From Candidatus Levyibacteriota bacterium (GTDB taxonomy: Bacteria; Patescibacteriota; Microgenomatia; Levybacterales; UBA12049), in NCBI GenBank assembly GCA_038254115.1, contig JBBSGK010000005.1, positions 1 to 63,136 of the forward strand: a stretch of 63,136 nucleotides of DNA. Direction: 5' to 3'. Under the pieces are notes generated by a model. It was not told the origin of the DNA and did not search any database. It saw only the letters and a list, made by a program, of their open reading frames with translations. This document shows, piece after piece, positions 4,796-63,136 of the stretch. Every line of letters begins with the position of its first letter. Positions within the stretch are counted from its first letter, which is position 1. Both the position numbers and the translations under genes were made by a program.

Positions 4796-5392
4796 ATGAA
4801 AATGTTTTTAATTTTCGTATTAGTTATTGGAATAGTAATTGGGTGTGTGATATTTTTACAAAAATCCGGCAATACTAAAAATGCTAACTTGGTTTTGCCG
4901 TTGCCGGTTGCTTCAAGTCAAGTTCGGACTGATACATTGACAATTTTGAATGCCAACAAAATAGCCCCCGAGTTTGCAGGCATTAGCAAATGGCTTAACC
5001 CTGAAAAGCCGTTAACGATTGCGGGACTGCGGGGTAAAGTGGTACTAATAGATTTCTGGACAAATCAATGTATTAACTGTATTCATACACTTCCTTATGT
5101 TACGAAATGGTATGACAAGTATAAAGATAGCGGATTTGTAGTTATCGGAGTGCACACGCCGGAGCTTGCATACGAGAGGACAGTTGCAAGCGTTGAGCAG
5201 GCGATAACTACATATGGTATCCACTACCCTGTCGCGCTGGATAATGATTATTCAACTTGGAAAGCATACGACAACCAATATTGGCCGGCAGAATATCTGA
5301 TTGACAAGAAAGGAATAATTAGACGTACGCACTTTGGTGAAGGAGAATATGAAGAGACTGAGCAGGTAATCCAAACATTACTTAAAGAATAA
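4796..5392 (+). CDS. Membrane-anchored TlpA/ResA-like thioredoxin-fold thiol:disulfide oxidoreductase
   Basis: 198 aa with an N-terminal anchor. FWTNQCINCIHTLP carries a CxxC motif. It is about 50% identical by eye to the thioredoxin domain inside the DipZ-like ORF (YWPAEYLIDKKGIIRRTHFGEG). Confidence 0.8.
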   Translation: MKMFLIFVLVIGIVIGCVIFLQKSGNTKNANLVLPLPVASSQVRTDTLTILNANKIAPEFAGISKWLNPEKPLTIAGLRGKVVLIDFWTNQCINCIHTLPYVTKWYDKYKDSGFVVIGVHTPELAYERTVASVEQAITTYGIHYPVALDNDYSTWKAYDNQYWPAEYLIDKKGIIRRTHFGEGEYEETEQVIQTLLKE

Positions 5393-24321: not shown

Positions 24322-24394
24322 GCGTCCGTAGTTCAGTGGCTAGAACAGTTGTCTTATACACAACATGTCGGAGGTTCGAGTCCTCCCGGACGCA
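24322..24394 (+). tRNA. tRNA-Ile, anticodon UAU
   Basis: Hand-folded 73-nt cloverleaf: acceptor GCGTCCG/CGGACGC, D arm GTTC-AGTGGCTA-GAAC, anticodon arm GTTGT-CTTATAC-ACAAC, T arm GGAGG-TTCGAGT-CCTCC. No CCA is encoded. Confidence 0.85.
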
Positions 24395-24430
24395 CACTTA
24401 GGTAAACTCAACGCAGGCCCAATTTGAATC

Positions 24431-25690: not shown

Positions 25691-26551
25691 TTAAAGCTCG
25701 CTGAGGGATGTGGTGTCTTTTGCGCGGTCCTGGACATATTCCAGGTATCTTTCAGTTGTTGAAAGTCTTTTGTGACCCAGGATTTTTGAAAGAAGGACTA
25801 GTGAAACGCCGTGTTTTAGATGATGCGCTACAAATGTGTGTCTGAGATCATTTACTTTGGCGTTTTCAATGCCTGCAATTCTGAAATATCTCTCAATGGC
25901 TGTTCTGATATTACGCACAAGAAAGGGTTTTCCTGATTTAGTTACAAATATATGGTCATCCTGGATCTCAGGGCGGATTTTGAGGAATCTATCAAGTGCC
26001 TCTTTTGCTGATTTATTCATAGGTACTACTCTTTCTGCGTGCTTTTCATGAGGGGTGATTCGGAGTCCATCCGGCTGAATGTCTGACATCCGCAGATCTG
26101 CCAATTCTCCAATTCTGATTCCTGTCTGAAGAAGAAGCTCGATTATCGCGTACATACGGGCATCGTTGCGTGCCGCATCTCTAAGTGCCCTATATTCTGT
26201 AGGTTTTAGCATACGGGGCGCTGCCAATTCGTATTGCGGGTGAGACACCAAAAGAGATGGGTCATCAGTTACGTATTCGTTTACTTTGAGAAATCTGTAG
26301 AAAGTGCGTGTGGAGTTGAGTTTTCTTGAAAGAGATTTTGGAGTGTAGCCTTTATCGGAAAGCTTGCCTAGAAATGCTTGAATATCTTCCTTTGTGACCT
26401 CGTGGATATGCTGTTTTTCAAGCTCCTCAAGAAAACTTGTAAGCTGATCAATATCTTTTCCGTAGGCCAAAATTGTAGCACTCGAGTGCTTTTTGCTCTT
26501 TAGAAAATCTAAAAATTGTTTATGCGCATCGCGCACTTTTATAACATTCAT
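25691..26551 (-). CDS. Tyrosine recombinase, XerC/XerD-like
   Basis: 286 aa with an N-terminal SAM-like core-binding domain. The catalytic-domain residues are present (R..., HTFVAHHL, LGHKRLSTTERY). Confidence 0.88.
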   Translation of the reverse strand: MNVIKVRDAHKQFLDFLKSKKHSSATILAYGKDIDQLTSFLEELEKQHIHEVTKEDIQAFLGKLSDKGYTPKSLSRKLNSTRTFYRFLKVNEYVTDDPSLLVSHPQYELAAPRMLKPTEYRALRDAARNDARMYAIIELLLQTGIRIGELADLRMSDIQPDGLRITPHEKHAERVVPMNKSAKEALDRFLKIRPEIQDDHIFVTKSGKPFLVRNIRTAIERYFRIAGIENAKVNDLRHTFVAHHLKHGVSLVLLSKILGHKRLSTTERYLEYVQDRAKDTTSLSEL

Positions 26552-28001: not shown

Positions 28002-28274
28002 TCAACGATAACCTAATTTAGGATAAAGTCTAGGTTTTAATTGTAAAATTTGTATTTTTCTTACTCTTTTCCAGCTTTTTATTTCAATTTCCCGCTTCAG
28101 TGCCTCGGATTTGGTAGCAAATTCTTCAGTGTGGATAACTTTCAACGGTTTGTGTGAGCGGGTATACTTCCCGCCCTTTCCATTTGAGTGAGCTAAAAAC
28201 CGTTTATCTATGTCATTTGTAGAGCCTGTATAAAGGCTATTGTCAGCACAGAGGAGAATATAAACAAACCACAT
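28002..28274 (-). CDS. GIY-YIG nuclease-domain protein
   Basis: WFVYILLCADNSLYTGSTNDIDKRFLAHSNG carries the GIY-YIG (URI) motifs. 90 aa. Confidence 0.85.
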   Translation of the reverse strand: MWFVYILLCADNSLYTGSTNDIDKRFLAHSNGKGGKYTRSHKPLKVIHTEEFATKSEALKREIEIKSWKRVRKIQILQLKPRLYPKLGYR

Positions 28275-28276
28275 AG

Positions 28277-28546
28277 TTATTTGGTATTTTCCTTAAAATA
28301 TTCATTTAACATTGTGCGGAGAGTTGTTTTACCCTTTGTCGTTTTGAAGTATTTTTCTCTACGTTTAGCATCTTTTTGATTATGGTAGGCCTCATAAAAT
28401 ATAAGGTTAAATGGTGCATAGCCTTTAGTTGAGTAATTTTCTTTATTGTTATGTTCGAAGAATCTTTTCCGGAGGTTGATAGAGAAGCCTACATAAATAA
28501 AATCTTTAGTTTTGCTTTTGAGGACGTAAACGTAGTAGAAGTTCAT
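28277..28546 (-). CDS. GIY-YIG nuclease-domain protein (second, diverged copy)
   Basis: FYYVYVLKSKTKDFIYVGFSINLRKRFFEHN. 89 aa, in tandem with the previous gene. Confidence 0.85.
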   Translation of the reverse strand: MNFYYVYVLKSKTKDFIYVGFSINLRKRFFEHNNKENYSTKGYAPFNLIFYEAYHNQKDAKRREKYFKTTKGKTTLRTMLNEYFKENTK

Positions 28547-28933
28547 CAGATTTGTTTCATGGGACGTACCAGTCGGTACATCCCTGCCTCACCATTCGCT
28601 TAAATAATTAGTTTAACTTTTATTTCGATGGTTAATCTTAAAAAGTTGCGCAGCGATGAACCTGAGCGTAGCGAATGGTTCGTTGTTGCGGGGACTGCAA
28701 GAACTTAGAACCTCCTTTCTTACCGAACCCCACCCCATATTTATACCAGATTTAGAATAAGATTGACAACCCTCCTGTGGCTGATTATGCCTAAACTTCC
28801 TGCTTCTATAATGGTGAGAGTCTCCTCGCGTGTGGGATTAACCGATACATATATTTAAAAAACGTAAATAATTTTTTTGAAATTTTACACTAATGCAATA
28901 CAAAATTATCTCTGATATACTGATATTAGCTTC

Positions 28934-29854
28934 ATGCCAAATGCTCAAGAGAATCAACAAGATAATGAGTTTAAGATAAAGTTTGATGGTCAACTTCATC
29001 AGGTTGATGCTAATACTTTAATAAATTCCTTAGTAAATATTTCTACGATATTAGAAGAGGTAAATACGGAACTTCATCCTGACGAAAAAACTAAAGTTAA
29101 AATAAAAGCACTTTCTCAAGGAAGCTTTTTAGTACATCTTTTTATAGAAGGTCAAAAATTAGCTCAAAGCATGATTAGCCCAACAGGTATAGCTACAACG
29201 GCTAGTTTAGTAACAATAGTAACTGGATTATTTGCAGTTAAAAAACATTTATTGGGAACTAAACCCAAAGAGACAAAAGAAATAGAAGGCAATAACGTAG
29301 AGATTACAAACGAAAAGGGAAACGTATTGGTTGTAGAATCTCTCACGCTTAATCTATATCAACATAACCAACCAATACAAGATGCTATTAGCAATAATTT
29401 TGAAACACTGGAAAATGATTCTTCCGTAGATGCTTTTGGAATTACAGATACAAACGAGCACGTTTTATTTAATGCAACCAGAGATGAATTTAATGAGATG
29501 GCAATTAAAAGTGTTGCTGTAGACGAGGACAAAAAGACAATAATCGAGTCCGCAACAGTTCATATTTTTAAAATAGTTTTTCAAGATAACTATAAATGGG
29601 AGTTTTACTATAAAGGAAATAAAATTTCCGCAAATATTACCGATACTGAATTCTTTGCCAAGATTGACAAGGGGGAGAGATTTGCAAAGGGAGATACCTT
29701 GATTGCTGAATTGCAAATCAATCAATTATTTGACCCCGCAGTAAATACCTGGGTTAACCATTCTTATCAAATAAATAAAGTAATAAAACATATACCAAGA
29801 GACGAACAGCAAAAGTTTTCTTTTGAAAATAAAGACGACGAAAAAAATAATTAA
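28934..29854 (+). CDS. Hypothetical 306-aa protein (element cargo)
   Basis: ORF only. No family recognised. Confidence 0.5.
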   Translation: MPNAQENQQDNEFKIKFDGQLHQVDANTLINSLVNISTILEEVNTELHPDEKTKVKIKALSQGSFLVHLFIEGQKLAQSMISPTGIATTASLVTIVTGLFAVKKHLLGTKPKETKEIEGNNVEITNEKGNVLVVESLTLNLYQHNQPIQDAISNNFETLENDSSVDAFGITDTNEHVLFNATRDEFNEMAIKSVAVDEDKKTIIESATVHIFKIVFQDNYKWEFYYKGNKISANITDTEFFAKIDKGERFAKGDTLIAELQINQLFDPAVNTWVNHSYQINKVIKHIPRDEQQKFSFENKDDEKNN

Positions 29855-29927
29855 AAGAGTGTACTTGTATTCTTCGGGATTCGGAAAAACCCTCAGGAAA
29901 TGCGTTATCATTAAAGCGCTTCACTGC

Positions 29928-30245
29928 TCAATGCCGAATGAATCTGTATGCAAGGTAAATAAGGAGAAAAGGGAACGTAATAGGTAAAAAGAGAATGAGC
30001 AATCCCCAAGTGAGCCAGTTTGTATTTCCAGCGGATTTAGTCATGTGATTTGTTGAATTTGTTTTGATTAACCTATCAACGCTTACAGAAGTTCTGTTGT
30101 AAACTGCGTTATATGCAGCTTTCTTCGGATTTGTTATAAATCCAGTACCTCGGGGCATTCGGATTTTGGCTCTAACCATCCGCTTTATTGAAGTACGGGC
30201 TGCGAATCTACGCTTTAAAGAAGGTGTACGGATTCCAAATTTCAT
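29928..30245 (-). CDS. Small basic protein with a C-terminal TM helix
   Basis: 105 aa. Its start overlaps the stop of the upstream minus-strand gene (ATGA-type overlap at 30242-30245). Confidence 0.45.
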   Translation of the reverse strand: MKFGIRTPSLKRRFAARTSIKRMVRAKIRMPRGTGFITNPKKAAYNAVYNRTSVSVDRLIKTNSTNHMTKSAGNTNWLTWGLLILFLPITFPFLLIYLAYRFIRH

Positions 30246-30736
30246 ACACTGGATTTTCTATTCTTAACTTTCTTAACACCTTTGTACCCTAGCCAACCAA
30301 GAATACCTAATGTAATAAAGCCCACTAATGGATTTCCATCACTATTTTCCCCTGCAACCTTAGGAGTTGGTGCAATCTTTTTTGTTGGTTCGGCTGTTGG
30401 CTTAGCGGTAGGTCTTATTGTTGGAATTGCGGTAGGTGCTAAAGTTGGAACTTTCGTGGGAATAGCAACAACTGGCGCAATATACTGCTTAACTGGTGCT
30501 GTTGTGGGAGCTGCTATAACTGGTGCGTTTTGTACTGGTGCTGAATTAGCTGGAGCACTTCCGCCACACTCGGAGGAATTTCCAGTATCTCCACAAACAT
30601 AAGAACCAGAATCACTTGGGCAAGAGTGAGCTGCATGACAACCATCTCTATGTGCTTCAACGCTCGATACGCTTACAGAGTAAAGTAATACAAGTAATAT
30701 AGTTACTAATAATTTTTTCATAATTGCATTATACAC
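30242..30736 (-). CDS. Secreted Cys/His-rich protein with a Pro/Ala/Thr linker and a C-terminal membrane anchor
   Basis: Signal peptide, then HRDGCHAAHSCPSDSGSYVCGDTGNSSECGG, a long PTxAP-type linker and a terminal TM helix. Confidence 0.5.
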   Translation of the reverse strand: MYNAIMKKLLVTILLVLLYSVSVSSVEAHRDGCHAAHSCPSDSGSYVCGDTGNSSECGGSAPANSAPVQNAPVIAAPTTAPVKQYIAPVVAIPTKVPTLAPTAIPTIRPTAKPTAEPTKKIAPTPKVAGENSDGNPLVGFITLGILGWLGYKGVKKVKNRKSSV

Positions 30737-30835
30737 TACCTCATATCAATCACGTGTATATTTATTGGTTCCATTTAACATAACCTGTTTTTCAATAGAT
30801 TGCAAACCAAGATTTTAGAGATATAATCTCATATC

Positions 30836-30866
30836 GCCAAAAGCCCCTCTCTTGCAGAAGGGCTTT
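30836..30866 (-). terminator. Rho-independent terminator of the 30903-31337 gene
   Basis: The minus-strand RNA reads GCCCUUCU-GCAAG-AGAGGGGC followed by UUUUGG. Confidence 0.55.
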
Positions 30867-30902
30867 ATGGTTCGTTGGACGCATTTCCTCAAATGTAGCT
30901 AT

Positions 30903-31337
30903 TTAATTCCATGTCACATCTAGCTTGTACTTTTCTGTATCAAATTTATCTGGATAGCTAGTTATCTCAAATGGCGTTGTTGCTCCAACCTCTAGTGGAG
31001 TACTACTCGTATCTCCTGCGTATGAGAAATTTGTCCCTATAACTGAGCCTTTTTCATCATAAAATGTTGCTGTTACTTTGACATAGGTTACTGGTCTTTT
31101 GGTGTTATTTTTCACTTCACCCACGAGTTTTGTGTAGCCTCCATCAATAGTTTTGTTTACAGCTCCATTGACTTCAATCTTTCCCGTTTCTTTTATCTCT
31201 GCTACTGAGTCCGTGGGATTGCTTGAAACAGTTGATGTAGTAGAGCTTTCGTCACTTCCGCTTATGCCAACGAATACGCCAAAAATAAATACTGCAATGA
31301 TTACTACTCCTAAAACTAATTTATTCATATCATTCAC
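30903..31337 (-). CDS. Membrane-anchored protein, FxLYD-domain-like
   Basis: 144 aa with an N-terminal TM helix. VTATFYDEKGSVIGT resembles the FxLYD motif (from memory). Confidence 0.5.
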   Translation of the reverse strand: MNDMNKLVLGVVIIAVFIFGVFVGISGSDESSTTSTVSSNPTDSVAEIKETGKIEVNGAVNKTIDGGYTKLVGEVKNNTKRPVTYVKVTATFYDEKGSVIGTNFSYAGDTSSTPLEVGATTPFEITSYPDKFDTEKYKLDVTWN

Positions 31338-31546
31338 CTCCTCTCAGTGATACTCACGGAAGCATGCAAAAAGCTCCCGTGGCGATGGATTGCTCCACCT
31401 GCTGCTCTTTCAAGCATCAGCCTTTCGAACGCTCCACGAGAGCTTACTGGGTTCGAAAGGTCTTGATGACCATGCCTCAAAGAGGTTTAGGCCAATTAAG
31501 TTGTACTTGTATTATAACAAACTACTTGATAGTTTATTAACAGTAC

Positions 31547-31593
31547 GTCAAGAGTCTTATAGTCTTGACATGGGGTCTCGAAAATGGTATATT
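31547..31593 (+). promoter_or_regulatory. Element promoter TTGACA-17-TATATT with an overlapping palindrome GTCAAGA-N9-TCTTGAC
   Basis: -35 at 31565-31570 and -10 at 31588-31593. The 7-bp perfect inverted repeat at 31547-31553 / 31563-31569 overlaps the -35. Confidence 0.5.
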
Positions 31594-31682
31594 TGTATTA
31601 GAGCTGTATTTCCATACAACTCTTAGAAATAGAAACTGAAAATGAAAATGAAGCTGAAATCAGTGTCTATTCTAGGAGAAAT

Positions 31683-31958
31683 ATGGATAAAGAAATACAG
31701 CAATCAAGCAATCTACATATTGAGAATGACAAGTGGTATTGTCCATTTCTCCTCGCCTCAAGTTTCCATAATTTAATCCAGTTCAAAGGCAGCTCACTCG
31801 CCAACGGCATTCTGTACTGGCAATTTTTCCCAAAAGATAAGGCTTTGGAGTTAATTCAGCAGCTCCGTACAAAAACAGAGCCATCTATACCAGCGAAAGA
31901 CATTTTTGATGCTGTAGACACATTTTGGCGACAGGTGTCGAGCTCAAAATATAGTTAA
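31683..31958 (+). CDS. Small hypothetical protein (DUF5659-like, from memory)
   Basis: 91 aa with an AGGAG SD upstream. Confidence 0.45.
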   Translation: MDKEIQQSSNLHIENDKWYCPFLLASSFHNLIQFKGSSLANGILYWQFFPKDKALELIQQLRTKTEPSIPAKDIFDAVDTFWRQVSSSKYS

Positions 31959-31989
31959 TGCAGTTCCTACAGGAATGGAGAAATGAATT

Positions 31990-32556
31990 ATGGGAAAAAG
32001 TAAGTTGTTCAGAATAATATTTGAAAGATTAAGAATCGTAGTGAGAGATCCAAATATAACAATGCAAGAAAAGGCATTATTACACGATTTGCTTCTATAT
32101 GCTGGGTTAGATGGAGAAGCATTTCCTAGTGAATTACAACTCGCCAAAGACATGGGCGTAACTGATCGTTGTATAAGGAATATTCTGACACGTTTAAAGA
32201 AAAAAAAGTTAATTTATGTGGAAAGAAGATTTAATGCATCAAACAAATACTTCTTTAATAAGGAAATATATTTCCTCAATGATATTCCTACAAGAAGTGC
32301 AGATAGGAACTCTAGTTCCTCACTGATCGGTACTAATGTTCCTGAAGTCTTAGGAACCACTCTTCCTACTAAAGGTAGTCAAGTAGAAATAAGTCATTTA
32401 AATAAGTCACAAAAGGATTCTATGCCAATTTTTACTCCTTGTAATAAAGGCCTTTGTCGTTATGGATATGTATATAAGGAGGAGTATAAAAAAGAAATAA
32501 CTTGCCAGTGCAGAATAGATTTTGAAATGATTCATGGGATAAAAAGCAATAGATGA
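31990..32556 (+). CDS. Winged-helix DNA-binding protein (replication-initiator/regulator-like)
   Basis: FPSELQLAKDMGVTDRCIRNILTRLKKKKLIYVERR is a typical wHTH. 188 aa. Confidence 0.55.
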   Translation: MGKSKLFRIIFERLRIVVRDPNITMQEKALLHDLLLYAGLDGEAFPSELQLAKDMGVTDRCIRNILTRLKKKKLIYVERRFNASNKYFFNKEIYFLNDIPTRSADRNSSSSLIGTNVPEVLGTTLPTKGSQVEISHLNKSQKDSMPIFTPCNKGLCRYGYVYKEEYKKEITCQCRIDFEMIHGIKSNR

Positions 32557-32592
32557 ATATGGATATAGGGTGTACCCCATTACTTAACTAAT

Positions 32593-32955
32593 ATGCAATG
32601 CACAGAACTTAAAAATAATAATGAGAGATGTAATAGTATGTCTTTACAGGGTAAAGACAAATGCTTCTTTCATTCACATGATACACAAGATGAAAGAAGA
32701 GCAGCTACCACTGCTGGCGGTAAAAGTAATAAGAATGTTAACAATCCCTCTGACTTTAGTGTAAAAACTGCTTGCGCAAAAGATCTCTTATCGATACTTC
32801 AACATACCATAGACGATTTGAAAACTCAGAAAGTTTCTCCTAACTATGCAAACTCTATCGGTTATTTAGTGAACATAGCTCTCAAGGTACTTGAACAAAG
32901 TGACATTGAAAAAAGAATGGAGGTAATTGAGTATGCTCTCAAACTCAAAAAATAA
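32593..32955 (+). CDS. Hypothetical protein with an N-terminal Cys/His cluster
   Basis: 120-aa ORF. C..x..C...CFFHSH at the N-terminus. The start is uncertain. Confidence 0.4.
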   Translation: MQCTELKNNNERCNSMSLQGKDKCFFHSHDTQDERRAATTAGGKSNKNVNNPSDFSVKTACAKDLLSILQHTIDDLKTQKVSPNYANSIGYLVNIALKVLEQSDIEKRMEVIEYALKLKK

Positions 32956-33376
32956 ATTTAAGCAACAAGTAGCTGGGCTAAGTATAGAAGAGGCTTTGCG
33001 CGGCTATATAAAAGCAGCCACGTCTGGAGATTTATATCTTGCGGAGTTCATTGAAAGGGAAGTGCCGTTAAAATACAGAAAATATTTTAACTGCGGTTTT
33101 AATCTCTACTTAGCAAAAGTCTCAATAATGAACGCGCTCCTAGTCCAAAAAGCGCTCTTAACAATTAACTTCTATATTATCCAGACCTCGAATGAAATCC
33201 TTAAAGAAAACAGAAAGATTGACGAAAAACTAGTAAAACAAACGATGATTGGCATTGATACGCAGAAGGAATACATCAGGGAAATAGACAAAATGATGAA
33301 GGATGTTTTTGATCCAACAATGTTCGAGAGTTTCAATCAACTTGAAGCGTTTTTTGATCATTGGAAGGAGCTGTGA
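32927..33376 (+). CDS. Hypothetical protein
   Basis: 149-aa ORF that overlaps the previous gene by 29 nt. Confidence 0.4.
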   Translation: MSMLSNSKNKFKQQVAGLSIEEALRGYIKAATSGDLYLAEFIEREVPLKYRKYFNCGFNLYLAKVSIMNALLVQKALLTINFYIIQTSNEILKENRKIDEKLVKQTMIGIDTQKEYIREIDKMMKDVFDPTMFESFNQLEAFFDHWKEL

Positions 33377-33442
33377 ACCAGAGATATGCAAAAAGATAAA
33401 AAGTCCATTGAACTGAAAGAAGAAAAGAAAGGGGAATAATTT

Positions 33443-33631
33443 ATGCAGTTAGATCCACAAGCTATCAATGAGTTCAGAGAGCTGTATCTGAAAGAGTATG
33501 GGATAAAACTTCCTAAAGAGGAGGCATTGGAACTCGGTGCGCGACTCATAAATTTTGTAAAGGCAGTATATGGAAATAATTTACCAAAACCGTATGACAT
33601 TGACACCGATAGAAATATGGATAATAATTAA
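33443..33631 (+). CDS. Small hypothetical protein
   Basis: 62-aa ORF. Confidence 0.35.
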   Translation: MQLDPQAINEFRELYLKEYGIKLPKEEALELGARLINFVKAVYGNNLPKPYDIDTDRNMDNN

Positions 33632-33632
33632 A

Positions 33633-33717
33633 TTGTGCTCACTAGTCCTTACGGCTTTTTAATGGTCGTCTTAGACATATCCGTAAGGGTGTGAGCACAA
33701 CTAAGGCGGCCATTAAA
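33633..33717. repeat. Compound inverted repeat immediately upstream of the recombinase gene
   Basis: TTGTGCTCAC..CCTTACGG (33633-33654) pairs with CCGTAAGG..GTGAGCACAA (33681-33700). A second pair, TTTAATGGTCG (33658-68) with CGGCCATTAAA (33707-17), reaches the recombinase SD. Confidence 0.7.
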
Positions 33718-33724
33718 GGAATTT

Positions 33725-35518
33725 ATGGATACAGAAATGAATCTCCAGTATTTGAGATATAGAAGAAAAAGTTCAGAGGATAACAAAGAACGGCAAGCAG
33801 CTTCGCTGGAGGAGCAAGCCTACGTATTAGATGGTATTGAGGCAAGGCATAAAATTAAAGCGCTTGACGATCTTCACGAGTCCAAATCCGCACATACCTC
33901 AGGCAGAGCTGTATTCAATGAAATGCTGGAAAGAATAGATGCAGGAGGGGCAAATGCGATACTAACTTGGCATCCCAACAGAATATGCCGCAACATGACT
34001 GACGGCGGTAAGGTCATTGACCTTATGGATAGAAACAAACTTCTTGAAATCCGCACTCCATTTCGTATTTACCATGCAACCCCTGAAGATAAATGGCTGT
34101 TAACTCTGGAGTTTGCAAATTCCAAAAAAGACTCAGACGATAAAAGTATTGCCGTAAAGCGAGGTTTGGATAAGAAAAATAGAGACGGCTGGAGGCCTGG
34201 TGTAGCACCCGAGGGATACCTGAACGATAAATATACAGAAAGTGGAAATAGAAGAATACTTACAGACACGGAGCGCCTACCTTATATGACAAAGATATTT
34301 GAATTATTTATGGGCGGTACTTCTGTTGTAGAAATTCACAGGATTGCAAAAGAGGAATGGCATTTCACCACAAGACAGAAGAAGAGGAGCGGAGGAAAAT
34401 CACTTTGTATCAGCACTATTTATTCAATCTTAAACAACCGATTTTATTGCGGAAGGTACGAATATCCTATTGGAAGTGGTAAATGGCATGATGGTAAGCA
34501 TGAGAAGGCGATAAAAGAGGATTTTTTTAACGAAGTGCAGGTAAGACTTGGCAAAAGGAGTAAATATCAACTTCAACACCATGACTATCCTTACTCAAGC
34601 CTTATCCCTTGCGGCCATTGTGGGTCTTCTGTGACCCCTCAGGAGCATTATCAGATCATTTGTTCCGAATGTAAGCAAAAGTTTGCGAGTAAGAATAAAG
34701 ATAGGTGCTTGAAATGTGAAACCCCTATTGAGGATATGAAAAATCCGACCCGCCTGCATTATATCTACTATTTATGTGGCAGGAAGAAAAAGATTGAGCA
34801 AAAATGTGAAGAGCCGAGCATCCGCAATGACAGGCTGGAGGAGCAGGTTAAGGAGAAGCTACTTCCAATACAAATATCCCCTGTTTTCTTGGATTGGGCA
34901 GTAAGAAAAATAAAGAGTATGGATAAAGGGGAGAAGTCCTTTGACGATCAAAAATTGGAGACACTAAAACAGGCGAAAGAAAATTGCAAAATAAAATTGA
35001 ACAACATATTTCAACTTAAAATATCGCCTGCAAACACAGATGGCAGCTTACTGAACGATGAAGACTACAAACAAGAAAAAGAAAAAATTGAGAAAGAAAT
35101 GCAAAGCATTGATAAGCAGCTTGGTATAACAGAGGGTAGCGAGGAGCTAGCGGATGAAAAGACTAAAAAAGCTCTGACTTTTGGGGCGCTGGCGATTAAA
35201 CGATTTGACGAGGGGAATTCAAAGAGAAAGCGAGACATTTTCAAAGGCCTTGCAGGGTTGAACCTAAACCTTAAACTTGGATTAGTCAACTTTGACAGCC
35301 CAAATCATATACAGAAGCTCGCGGAAATTAAAAAAGATGTAGATGAACTAGAAAAGAGGGTTGAACCTAAAGATTTGATTGTTAAATCAACCCAAACGGA
35401 TACATTATATGCCTCAGTTCCAAGTTTGTTGCGGGGTAAGGAGTTGAACCTTATCTGTAAGATTATGAGCCTCACGTGCACCGTACACTACCCCGCGTAT
35501 TGTTCCAAAATCATTTGA
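33725..35518 (+). CDS. Large serine recombinase
   Basis: 597 aa. The N-terminal resolvase domain has YLRYRRKSSEDNKERQAASLEEQ (catalytic Ser). A recombinase domain, a Cys-rich zinc ribbon (CGHCG...CSEC...CLKC) and a coiled coil follow. The last ~30 codons are antisense to a tRNA-like sequence and are probably not native. Confidence 0.88.
   Translation: MDTEMNLQYLRYRRKSSEDNKERQAASLEEQAYVLDGIEARHKIKALDDLHESKSAHTSGRAVFNEMLERIDAGGANAILTWHPNRICRNMTDGGKVIDLMDRNKLLEIRTPFRIYHATPEDKWLLTLEFANSKKDSDDKSIAVKRGLDKKNRDGWRPGVAPEGYLNDKYTESGNRRILTDTERLPYMTKIFELFMGGTSVVEIHRIAKEEWHFTTRQKKRSGGKSLCISTIYSILNNRFYCGRYEYPIGSGKWHDGKHEKAIKEDFFNEVQVRLGKRSKYQLQHHDYPYSSLIPCGHCGSSVTPQEHYQIICSECKQKFASKNKDRCLKCETPIEDMKNPTRLHYIYYLCGRKKKIEQKCEEPSIRNDRLEEQVKEKLLPIQISPVFLDWAVRKIKSMDKGEKSFDDQKLETLKQAKENCKIKLNNIFQLKISPANTDGSLLNDEDYKQEKEKIEKEMQSIDKQLGITEGSEELADEKTKKALTFGALAIKRFDEGNSKRKRDIFKGLAGLNLNLKLGLVNFDSPNHIQKLAEIKKDVDELEKRVEPKDLIVKSTQTDTLYASVPSLLRGKELNLICKIMSLTCTVHYPAYCSKII
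35431..35496 (-). other. tRNA-like sequence (CAU anticodon loop), 66-67 nt, non-canonical
   Basis: The minus strand reads GCGGGGT-AG-TGTACGGTGCAC-G-TGAGG-CTCATAA-TCTTA-CAGA-TAAGG-TTCAACT-CCTTA-CCCCGC. The D arm is shortened and the acceptor/T junction is 1 nt short. It overlaps the 3' end of the recombinase ORF. Confidence 0.4.
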
Positions 35519-63038: not shown

Positions 63039-63136
63039 ATGTCAGATACAGCAACACCAAAAGACTTAATTGAGCTTGAAAAAAAGCTTATTGAGAGGCA
63101 GGAAAGACTCGATAACAAACAGGAAGAGGTAGATAA
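63039..63136 (+). CDS. 5' end of a CDS (partial; MSDTATPKDLIELEKKLIERQERLDNKQEEVD...)
   Basis: The frame is open to the window edge and looks like a coiled coil. Its identity is unknown. Confidence 0.3.
   Translation, partial: MSDTATPKDLIELEKKLIERQERLDNKQEEVD

Follow-up and report, generated by a model that had tools for sequence, protein, structure and literature searches.

A mobile element of 6,743 bp interrupts the chromosome of a Candidatus Levyibacteriota bacterium (order Levybacterales of the Patescibacteriota; assembly GCA_038254115.1) on contig JBBSGK010000005.1, of which the stretch from position 1 to position 63,136, referred to here as the window, was analysed. It is very probably an integrated element whose large serine recombinase (LSR) has attP, the attachment site of the circular form, inside the 3′ end of its own gene, and it belongs to a family that is widespread in the Patescibacteria, also known as the Candidate Phyla Radiation (CPR). 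Documented below are the insertion, its ends with their att cores, the family of the enzyme, the split of its gene and, from codon comparisons, the selection on the detached tail as a protein. The junctions and the target are the following.

28683..28693, forward strand: attL core, an exact repeat consisting of the displaced last 9 nt of the tRNA gene plus 2 nt of trailer
35426..35436, forward strand: attR core, the other exact copy, in which the last 9 nt belong to the tRNA gene itself, plus 2 nt of trailer
35428..35497, reverse strand: initiator-type tRNA(CAU), the integration target, left intact (ARAGORN and Rfam, 43.7 bits)

A first-pass annotation of the window, made from the letters alone, had proposed an integrated element of about 6.7 kb bounded by an 11-bp direct repeat. 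The two copies of this 11-mer, TTGTTGCGGGG, are exact (28683-28693 and 35426-35436) and delimit an element that spans 28694-35436. Both flanks of the window were then searched in related genomes, where the annotation had suggested that an empty site might be found, and two such sites exist, one in G001, which belongs to the same genus, and one in G012, from another genus of the same family. In G001 the left flank reaches as far as contig position 1990 and the right flank begins at 1980, so that they share exactly 11 bp, and the order is left flank, single 11-mer, tRNA, in agreement with the attB site predicted from the two junctions of the window. G012 is likewise uninterrupted, with left flank, a single 11-mer and the tRNA contiguous, and around the core the predicted attB agrees base for base with both empty sites. 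The DNA to the left of the attL core is thus host DNA (the B arm), being contiguous with the tRNA, up to 28693, in G001 and G012. In a third genome, G025, from another family of the same order, this conserved left flank and this tRNA enclose a sister element of 6,562 bp, whose LSR is 53% identical. The segment 28694-35436 is a real insertion, proven by the empty sites in two related genomes.

The target had been described as tRNA-like DNA; it is a tRNA gene indeed, and more than that, a genuine initiator tRNA. A C1:A72 acceptor end, as read here from the sequence, is typical of bacterial initiator tRNAs, and CCA is not encoded. The gene is identical base for base in the element-free genome G001, which argues that it is the normal gene of the genus, undamaged despite the modest Rfam score. 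The assembly (1.14 Mb in 43 contigs, 95% complete) yielded 40 tRNAs, only two of them with a CAU anticodon, namely the target and an elongator-type tRNA 90 nt away, which leaves the target at 35428-35497 as the sole initiator-type tRNA among the 40. A tRNA-Ile gene at 24322-24395 of the window (forward strand) has UAU as its encoded anticodon, and the presence of only two genomic CAU tRNAs fits the absence of a tRNA-Ile2 of the lysidine type. The whole arrangement is that of a tRNA island, with an intact tRNA beside the integrase gene, a displaced 3′ repeat at the opposite end and the empty site in relatives.

Both the length of the repeat and the choice of a tRNA end had initially been held to be atypical of serine integrases. 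The former is not, the repeat being the piece of tRNA 3′ end without which the element could not restore the gene (7-16 bp in relatives); the latter is unusual for the classical serine integrases and yet the rule in this clade. Strand exchange by a serine recombinase takes place at a central 2 bp that are necessarily identical in both partners, and the block of identity between the two ends measures 11 bp in the window, 8-9 bp in G025 and G075 and 7-16 bp across relatives, the shorter block in G025 and G075 resulting from tRNAs that differ just after CGG. The crossover must lie inside the attR core and, judged from these blocks, probably within its bases 2-9 (TGTTGCGG), if the clade uses one position. 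A scan for dyad symmetry around the crossover dinucleotide gave 12 of 25 matches at best and narrowed the position no further.

The surroundings of the site have a history of their own. Two other genomes of the same genus, G003 and G004, were unusable as empty sites, the neighbourhood of the tRNA pair being rearranged: in G003 (loci L033/L018) the initiator/elongator pair is inverted relative to murI, and in G004 (L034) the tRNA and the GIY-YIG genes stand about 7.9 kb apart, with no gene of this recombinase family in between, from which it follows that the tRNA site has been repeatedly rearranged within the genus. These genes, two tandem stand-alone GIY-YIG domain genes of 89-90 aa, flank the site in the window (28002-28546, reverse strand), and in G025 homologues lie on either side of the element. 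Their upstream region coincides with a stretch of about 45 bp just downstream of the initiator tRNA (B arm; window 28600-28682) that is near-identical in G001, G012 and G025. Its conservation crosses genera and even families, far above that of the neighbouring genes (68-76% identical), and it may represent an RNA, a control element, or a sequence kept as part of attB.

The split integrase gene

Two separated segments of the window make up the integrase gene.

33725..35518, forward strand: LSR open reading frame (ORF) in its integrated form, 597 aa, with PF00239 Resolvase, PF07508 Recombinase and PF13408 Zn_ribbon_recom
28695..28760, forward strand: detached 3′ end of the LSR gene, 21 codons and TAA, which is also the P′ arm of attP

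The 597-aa protein had been taken for a large serine recombinase from the outset, an assignment upheld by its three Pfam domains (E 6.7e-10 for PF00239) and by its predicted fold. Residues R14, S16, R61, R86 and R89 are invariant in the clade alignments, as are three cysteine clusters (296/299, 313/316 and 328/331), and structure models contain long paired helices at 386-431 and 445-496 that form the coiled-coil insertion of the zinc ribbon. Foldseek matched the protein with cryo-electron microscopy complexes of full-length serine integrases and their att sites (E ~1e-18 to 1e-9). The protein thus combines the resolvase-type catalytic domain, the recombinase domain and the zinc ribbon with coiled coil of an LSR, and we infer that it is the enzyme behind this insertion.

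As had been noticed, the reading frame runs past the right repeat into the antisense of the tRNA, by 26 codons where about 30 had been estimated, and thereby crosses the whole antisense tRNA. The protein is encoded by the element through Gly571, the last base of which (35437) is already on the host side, while residues 572-597 are antisense tRNA. When 35436 is joined to 28694, as would be the case in an excised circle, an ORF of 592 aa results, in which the codons L-L-R-G are followed by 21 codons (28695-28757) and a stop (28758-28760). Only in this junction is 28695-28760 read as the end of the LSR, and the ORF stays in frame across the reconstructed attP, i.e., the integrase gene spans its own attachment site. 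The suspicion that the C-terminus had been created by the junction was therefore well founded, the native tail having been located at the far end and being conserved in the family; that of G025 has the same length and is clearly homologous, with many synonymous differences.

LSR loci were collected from 22 further genomes of the order, which gave 23 loci together with the window. At no fewer than 15 of these 23 the LSR ORF terminates within an antisense tRNA or past it, and the tRNAs abutted by LSRs of the clade are of the fMet/Met, Asn, Ser, Gln and His types, the T-loop being read by all in one common frame as D/E-S/L-N-type residues. At five other loci the tail stops right after L-R-G and a group I intron was found in the neighbouring DNA; judging by sequence, we read these as intron-containing tRNAs missed by ARAGORN. 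The introns beside the LSR 3′ ends lie at L043 1279-1472, L042 1300-1492, L044 10941-11149, L046 1325-1527 and L035 1539-1829, in genomes G225, G229, G092, G210 and G053, where they are flanked by what reads as tRNA-fMet exons (tRNA-Asn in G053). CPR genomes would thus seem to carry intron-split tRNA genes, of which the elements seem still to target the 3′ exon.

With repeats of 7-10 bp, exact matching proved too noisy to locate the far ends of the elements at Ser, Gln and His tRNAs, and an nhmmer model of the far-end region, applied without a frame filter, was used in its place and located far ends in seven more genomes. The far ends located in this way join the LSR in frame at 10 of 10 sites, adding 14-26 codons with the conserved motif L/V-E/D-x-I/V-R-T-Y-F, and a search by motif and frame added G108 (two sites), G159 and G072; those of G014, G035, G008, G242 and G217 were found by neither the nhmmer model nor the motif search. 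In the 15 tails, pairwise differences at codon positions 1, 2 and 3 were 0.37, 0.27 and 0.61, and the invariant arginine is written with five codons from both codon families (AGA, AGG, CGA, CGC and CGG). The same peptide is contiguous with the rest of the protein in a close database homologue, P0043 (591 aa, on a contig of 7,128 bp), as well as in the distant homologues P0114-P0120. The third-position bias, the five arginine codons and the contiguous peptide together argue for selection at the protein level, and on these codon comparisons the far-end tail is selected as protein.

Most relatives in the databases are known only in the other form. Among the 120 best database homologues, at least 93 have ends of the integrated type, 60 of them with tails read from antisense tRNA and 33 with a stop codon immediately behind the core, and since they were annotated in the integrated state, the C-termini of at least 93 of the 120 are junction artefacts without the native tail. 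A protein search with residues 540-591 of P0043 returned P0043 itself only, and a metagenome scan with P0043 gave four relatives, none with an intact tail and none of them the contig of P0043 itself.

Mechanism and rival explanations

In the proposed mechanism the LSR would have recombined attP, inside the 3′ end of its own gene, with attB at the 3′ tip of the initiator tRNA gene. The tRNA would be regenerated because the 11 bp common to attP and attB cover its last 9 nt, and with a crossover in the L-L-R-G codons the last 21 codons would have been carried to the far left end of the element. The integrated gene would then read 26 codons of antisense tRNA in place of the native 21, and only the excised circle would encode the complete 592-aa enzyme with its tail, predicted by AlphaFold2 to be helical, whereas the integrated enzyme would lack the tail helix and carry 0-30 junk residues, depending on the tRNA of the host. 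The element presumably still excises, its Rep-like protein (see below) might let the circle replicate, and the exchange of tails could alter the activity, stability or direction of the enzyme between the two states. Given the many tRNA types and genera over which the clade extends, its elements must still be mobile, and a dead tail-less form is improbable; the main role of the tail would then be in integration, the reaction of the circle, in the stability of the enzyme, or in holding back excision.

Taken further, the tail swap might be a built-in state sensor, the full integrase encoded by the circle being competent for attP × attB recombination and the chromosomal form being locked, or redirected to excision with the 62-aa partner encoded just upstream. 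If this were true, the direction of a serine integrase would be set partly by the topology of its own gene, and a corollary would be that most database entries for the clade are chimeras without their true C-terminus. That the swap is such a real functional switch is a tentative idea drawn from sequences and models, and we consider it rather unlikely.

Several observations weigh against an integrase whose attP lies within its own gene. Neither an excised circle nor an attP junction of this element was observed, and an attP-specific DNA pattern applied to 185,579 species genomes gave a single match, a decayed relic. The tail codons coincide with the expected P′ half-site, and some of their constraint may therefore reflect binding by the integrase. 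In AlphaFold2 models the crossover falls inside a helix of P0043 (565-580, predicted local distance difference test score, pLDDT, ~79-88) and the chimeric tail of the window LSR scores a pLDDT of 26-50, but the window model is the poorer one overall (72 vs 82.5) and the contrast may reflect alignment depth only. Finally, composition barely distinguishes the element from its genome, with a GC content of 0.373 against 0.392 ± 0.02 in genome windows of 6.7 kb; the AT-richness remarked upon at first is present in direction but weak, and at the 15th percentile of the genome windows composition was rejected as a boundary marker.

The relic itself lies in locus L060, in Candidatus Amesbacteria (MEXP01000001.1, reverse strand, ~5144-5175), and consists of the last LSR codons, the core and the first tail codons; it has no LSR gene, and an initiator-type tRNA lies at a distance of about 0.9 kb. 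G229 and G108 each contain two far-end (P′) sites. Together, the relic and the paired P′ sites suggest, from their sequences, tandem insertions and decay at a hotspot.

The explanation that competes best accepts the split as real and holds it to be functionally neutral, with attP overlapping the gene end for compactness; it claims a substantial share, though well under half, of the uncertainty that is left. The integrated tails vary from 0 to ~30 residues, so that nothing specific seems to be needed there, all integrated copies keep intact ORFs of ~570 aa, and McMurdie et al., in describing the comparable recombinase DsiB (see the last section), called its variable C-terminal translation a trivial possibility (PMC3146451). 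Neutrality is harder to reconcile with a tail that is conserved as protein across LSRs only 31-60% identical and across four kinds of tRNA, and that is contiguous in distant homologues, from which we conclude that the tail matters at least in the excised state.

Conservation of 28695-28760 as a DNA signal only, as P′ half-site or promoter and not as coding sequence, is improbable. The region does coincide with the expected P′ arm, and farther out a block, ATTTATAC, is conserved as DNA in different frames in the window and in G006. A signal of this kind would not account for the bias towards third positions, for arginine codons drawn from both families, for in-frame joins that were stop-free at all 10 sites, or for the uninterrupted peptide of P0043 and P0114-P0120. 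We give still less credence to an insertion by another enzyme with the LSR as mere cargo, the candidate being the XerC/D-like tyrosine recombinase encoded at 25691-26551. Its gene lies 2 kb left of the element and tyrosine integrases classically target tRNA ends (Islander paper), but it stands outside the element, beside conserved host genes such as divIC; no tyrosine integrase was found inside the element with Pfam, and it is the LSR that abuts the tRNA in at least 15 relatives and five tRNA types, with an ORF that spans the core in frame. Least credible of all is an ordinary stretch of chromosome with a coincidental repeat, for although a third exact copy of TTGTTGCGGGG exists on contig C25 in an unrelated context (by chance, the two strands of 1.14 Mb should contain ~0.5 of them) and GC content is not distinctive, chance, which the first-pass annotation had put at about 1 in 100 and had left standing, is excluded by the two empty sites with their base-level agreement, and the G025 element lies in parallel between the same flanks.

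Other contents of the element

Between its ends, the integrated element with the split LSR gene contains the following features.

28934..29854, forward strand: 306-aa cargo gene, PADLOC candidate defence family PDC-S42; phrog_3243
29928..31337, reverse strand: leftward block of three small genes (105, 164 and 144 aa), ORFs with no assigned function
31384..31493, reverse strand: LOOT RNA (RF03000), cmscan 67.6 bits against a gathering threshold of 46.4, model positions 1-121
31683..33376, forward strand: rightward block of four genes (91, 188, 120 and 149 aa), the 188-aa product being a Rep-like winged helix-turn-helix protein (HTH_36 / DnaD_N)
33443..33631, forward strand: 62-aa protein directly upstream of the LSR, candidate recombination directionality factor or regulator

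The 62-aa protein is the most constant companion of the integrase. In 9 of 11 other delimited elements a homologue with 30-65% identity directly precedes the LSR, and among these 11 the only recurrent parts are this protein and the LSR itself (present in 10 of the 11 comparisons, the LSR gene of G024 running off the contig end), while the remaining cargo varies between elements. It matched no Pfam family at E values up to 10 and had no informative match in a protein atlas; its position suggests that it could be a directionality factor or a regulator.

The 306-aa protein matched PDLC05015 over its full length (E 3.6e-38) and phrog_3243 (E 8e-42), with weak matches to hypothetical genes of Lactobacillus phage A2 and of a Bifidobacterium phage. 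By homology it is candidate anti-phage cargo, PDC-S42 being itself only a candidate family, and CPR bacteria would on such elements exchange candidate defence genes. In the leftward block, matches to phrog_10934 and phrog_14275 and weak PT-repeat and DUF3426 matches were obtained, and the 144-aa protein is shared with the G025 element (58% identity). The 91-aa protein of the rightward block recurs in the G024 and G108 elements. A winged helix-turn-helix protein had already been recognised in the element; it is the 188-aa Rep-like protein, which matched HTH_36 (E 1.8e-7) and replication-initiation families of PHROGs (down to E 1.3e-11). The genes of the element had also been thought to differ from their neighbours by their Shine–Dalgarno (SD) sequences, and in a crude count of long ORFs such motifs do precede 3 of 7 inside against 6 of 53 outside, but among all element genes only 5 of 10 have an SD-like motif.

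Among the 10 element proteins no capsid, portal, terminase, tail or relaxase gene was recognised with Pfam and PHROGs, and no relatives of the element were present in the IMG/VR viral contigs. A tailed prophage was accordingly rejected, its capsid, portal, terminase and tail genes not being found, and the lack of prophage genes and of relatives in viral contigs argues for a family of small integrative, possibly self-replicating elements.

The LOOT RNA shares its strand with the 144-aa gene and lies 46 nt upstream of it. Further copies occur in the G025 and G024 elements (87 and 80 bits), so that the three positions are 31384-31493 (reverse strand) in the window, 5142-5256 (forward strand) in L032 and 5079-5192 (reverse strand) in L041, and the elements that bear them target tRNA-fMet (window and G025) and tRNA-Gln (G024). 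Compensatory changes in two stems were observed in the three-way alignment, and each copy is located just 5′ of an ORF on the same strand, these ORFs not being all homologous. No function of LOOT was described in the papers that could be searched, and the main text of Weinberg et al. 2017 contains no LOOT discussion; the present elements may be the first genomic context for the motif, and an orphan RNA would thereby gain a genomic home.

Comparison with known systems

Serine integrases are prized for genome engineering and large surveys mine genome annotations for them. For the clade described here, the testing of such enzymes requires that the ORF encoded by the circle be rebuilt. The combination of integrase, 62-aa partner and attP also offers a small and simple system in which a possible control of recombination direction by gene splitting could be studied.

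The well-studied integrases phiC31, Bxb1, A118/LI and SPbeta SprA have the same domain order and fold as the window LSR, at an identity of only 12-21%. Classical phage serine integrases insert at intergenic sites or within protein-coding sequence, with attP located outside the integrase gene. In the mycobacteriophages BPs and Brujita, attP is inside the 3′ end of the repressor gene, and integration into a tRNA gene changes the C-terminus of the repressor and its stability; the integrase is of the tyrosine family there, and the effect on the repressor was shown experimentally.

Integrases that extend across attP are represented, in the Islander paper, by those of Mx8 and SSV, both of the tyrosine family, and SSV-type integrases are also listed in a review of archaeal recombinases (PMC8371274). 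The likeness of Mx8 IntP/IntX and of SSV1 to the window LSR lies in an attP inside the integrase ORF and in an integration into a tRNA gene that alters or partitions the integrase. They differ in belonging to an unrelated enzyme family with a different chemistry, and SSV1 divides its gene into two sizeable pieces, as against an exchange confined to the last 21 codons in the window LSR. According to the Islander paper (2015), no serine integrase was known to target a tRNA gene, and no tRNA-targeting clade of serine integrases with a split gene was described in the open-access literature that was searched, to which the present element adds a family of serine integrases that targets tRNA genes.

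The layout has a published precedent in DsiB at ssrA. McMurdie et al. 2011 (PMC3146451) described this serine recombinase of ~540 aa at the edge of the ssrA islands of Dehalococcoides, where the 3′ end of its gene invariably lies across the att repeat and continues into the antisense strand of ssrA, and they considered that it was perhaps fully functional only on the circle. The likeness is close, as in both cases an LSR gene at the edge of the element runs across the att repeat into the antisense strand of an essential tRNA-like gene present in a single copy. The target is, however, the transfer-messenger RNA (tmRNA) in the case of DsiB and a tRNA in the case of the window element; DsiB is CcrB-like and paired with a second, small serine recombinase, DsiA, whereas here the partner is a non-recombinase protein of 62 aa. 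For DsiB there was no report of a conserved far-end tail, while in the present elements, whose hosts are CPR bacteria, the tail is conserved as protein, and the DsiB observation is thereby extended to a far-end tail that is, by its codon pattern, under selection at the protein level.

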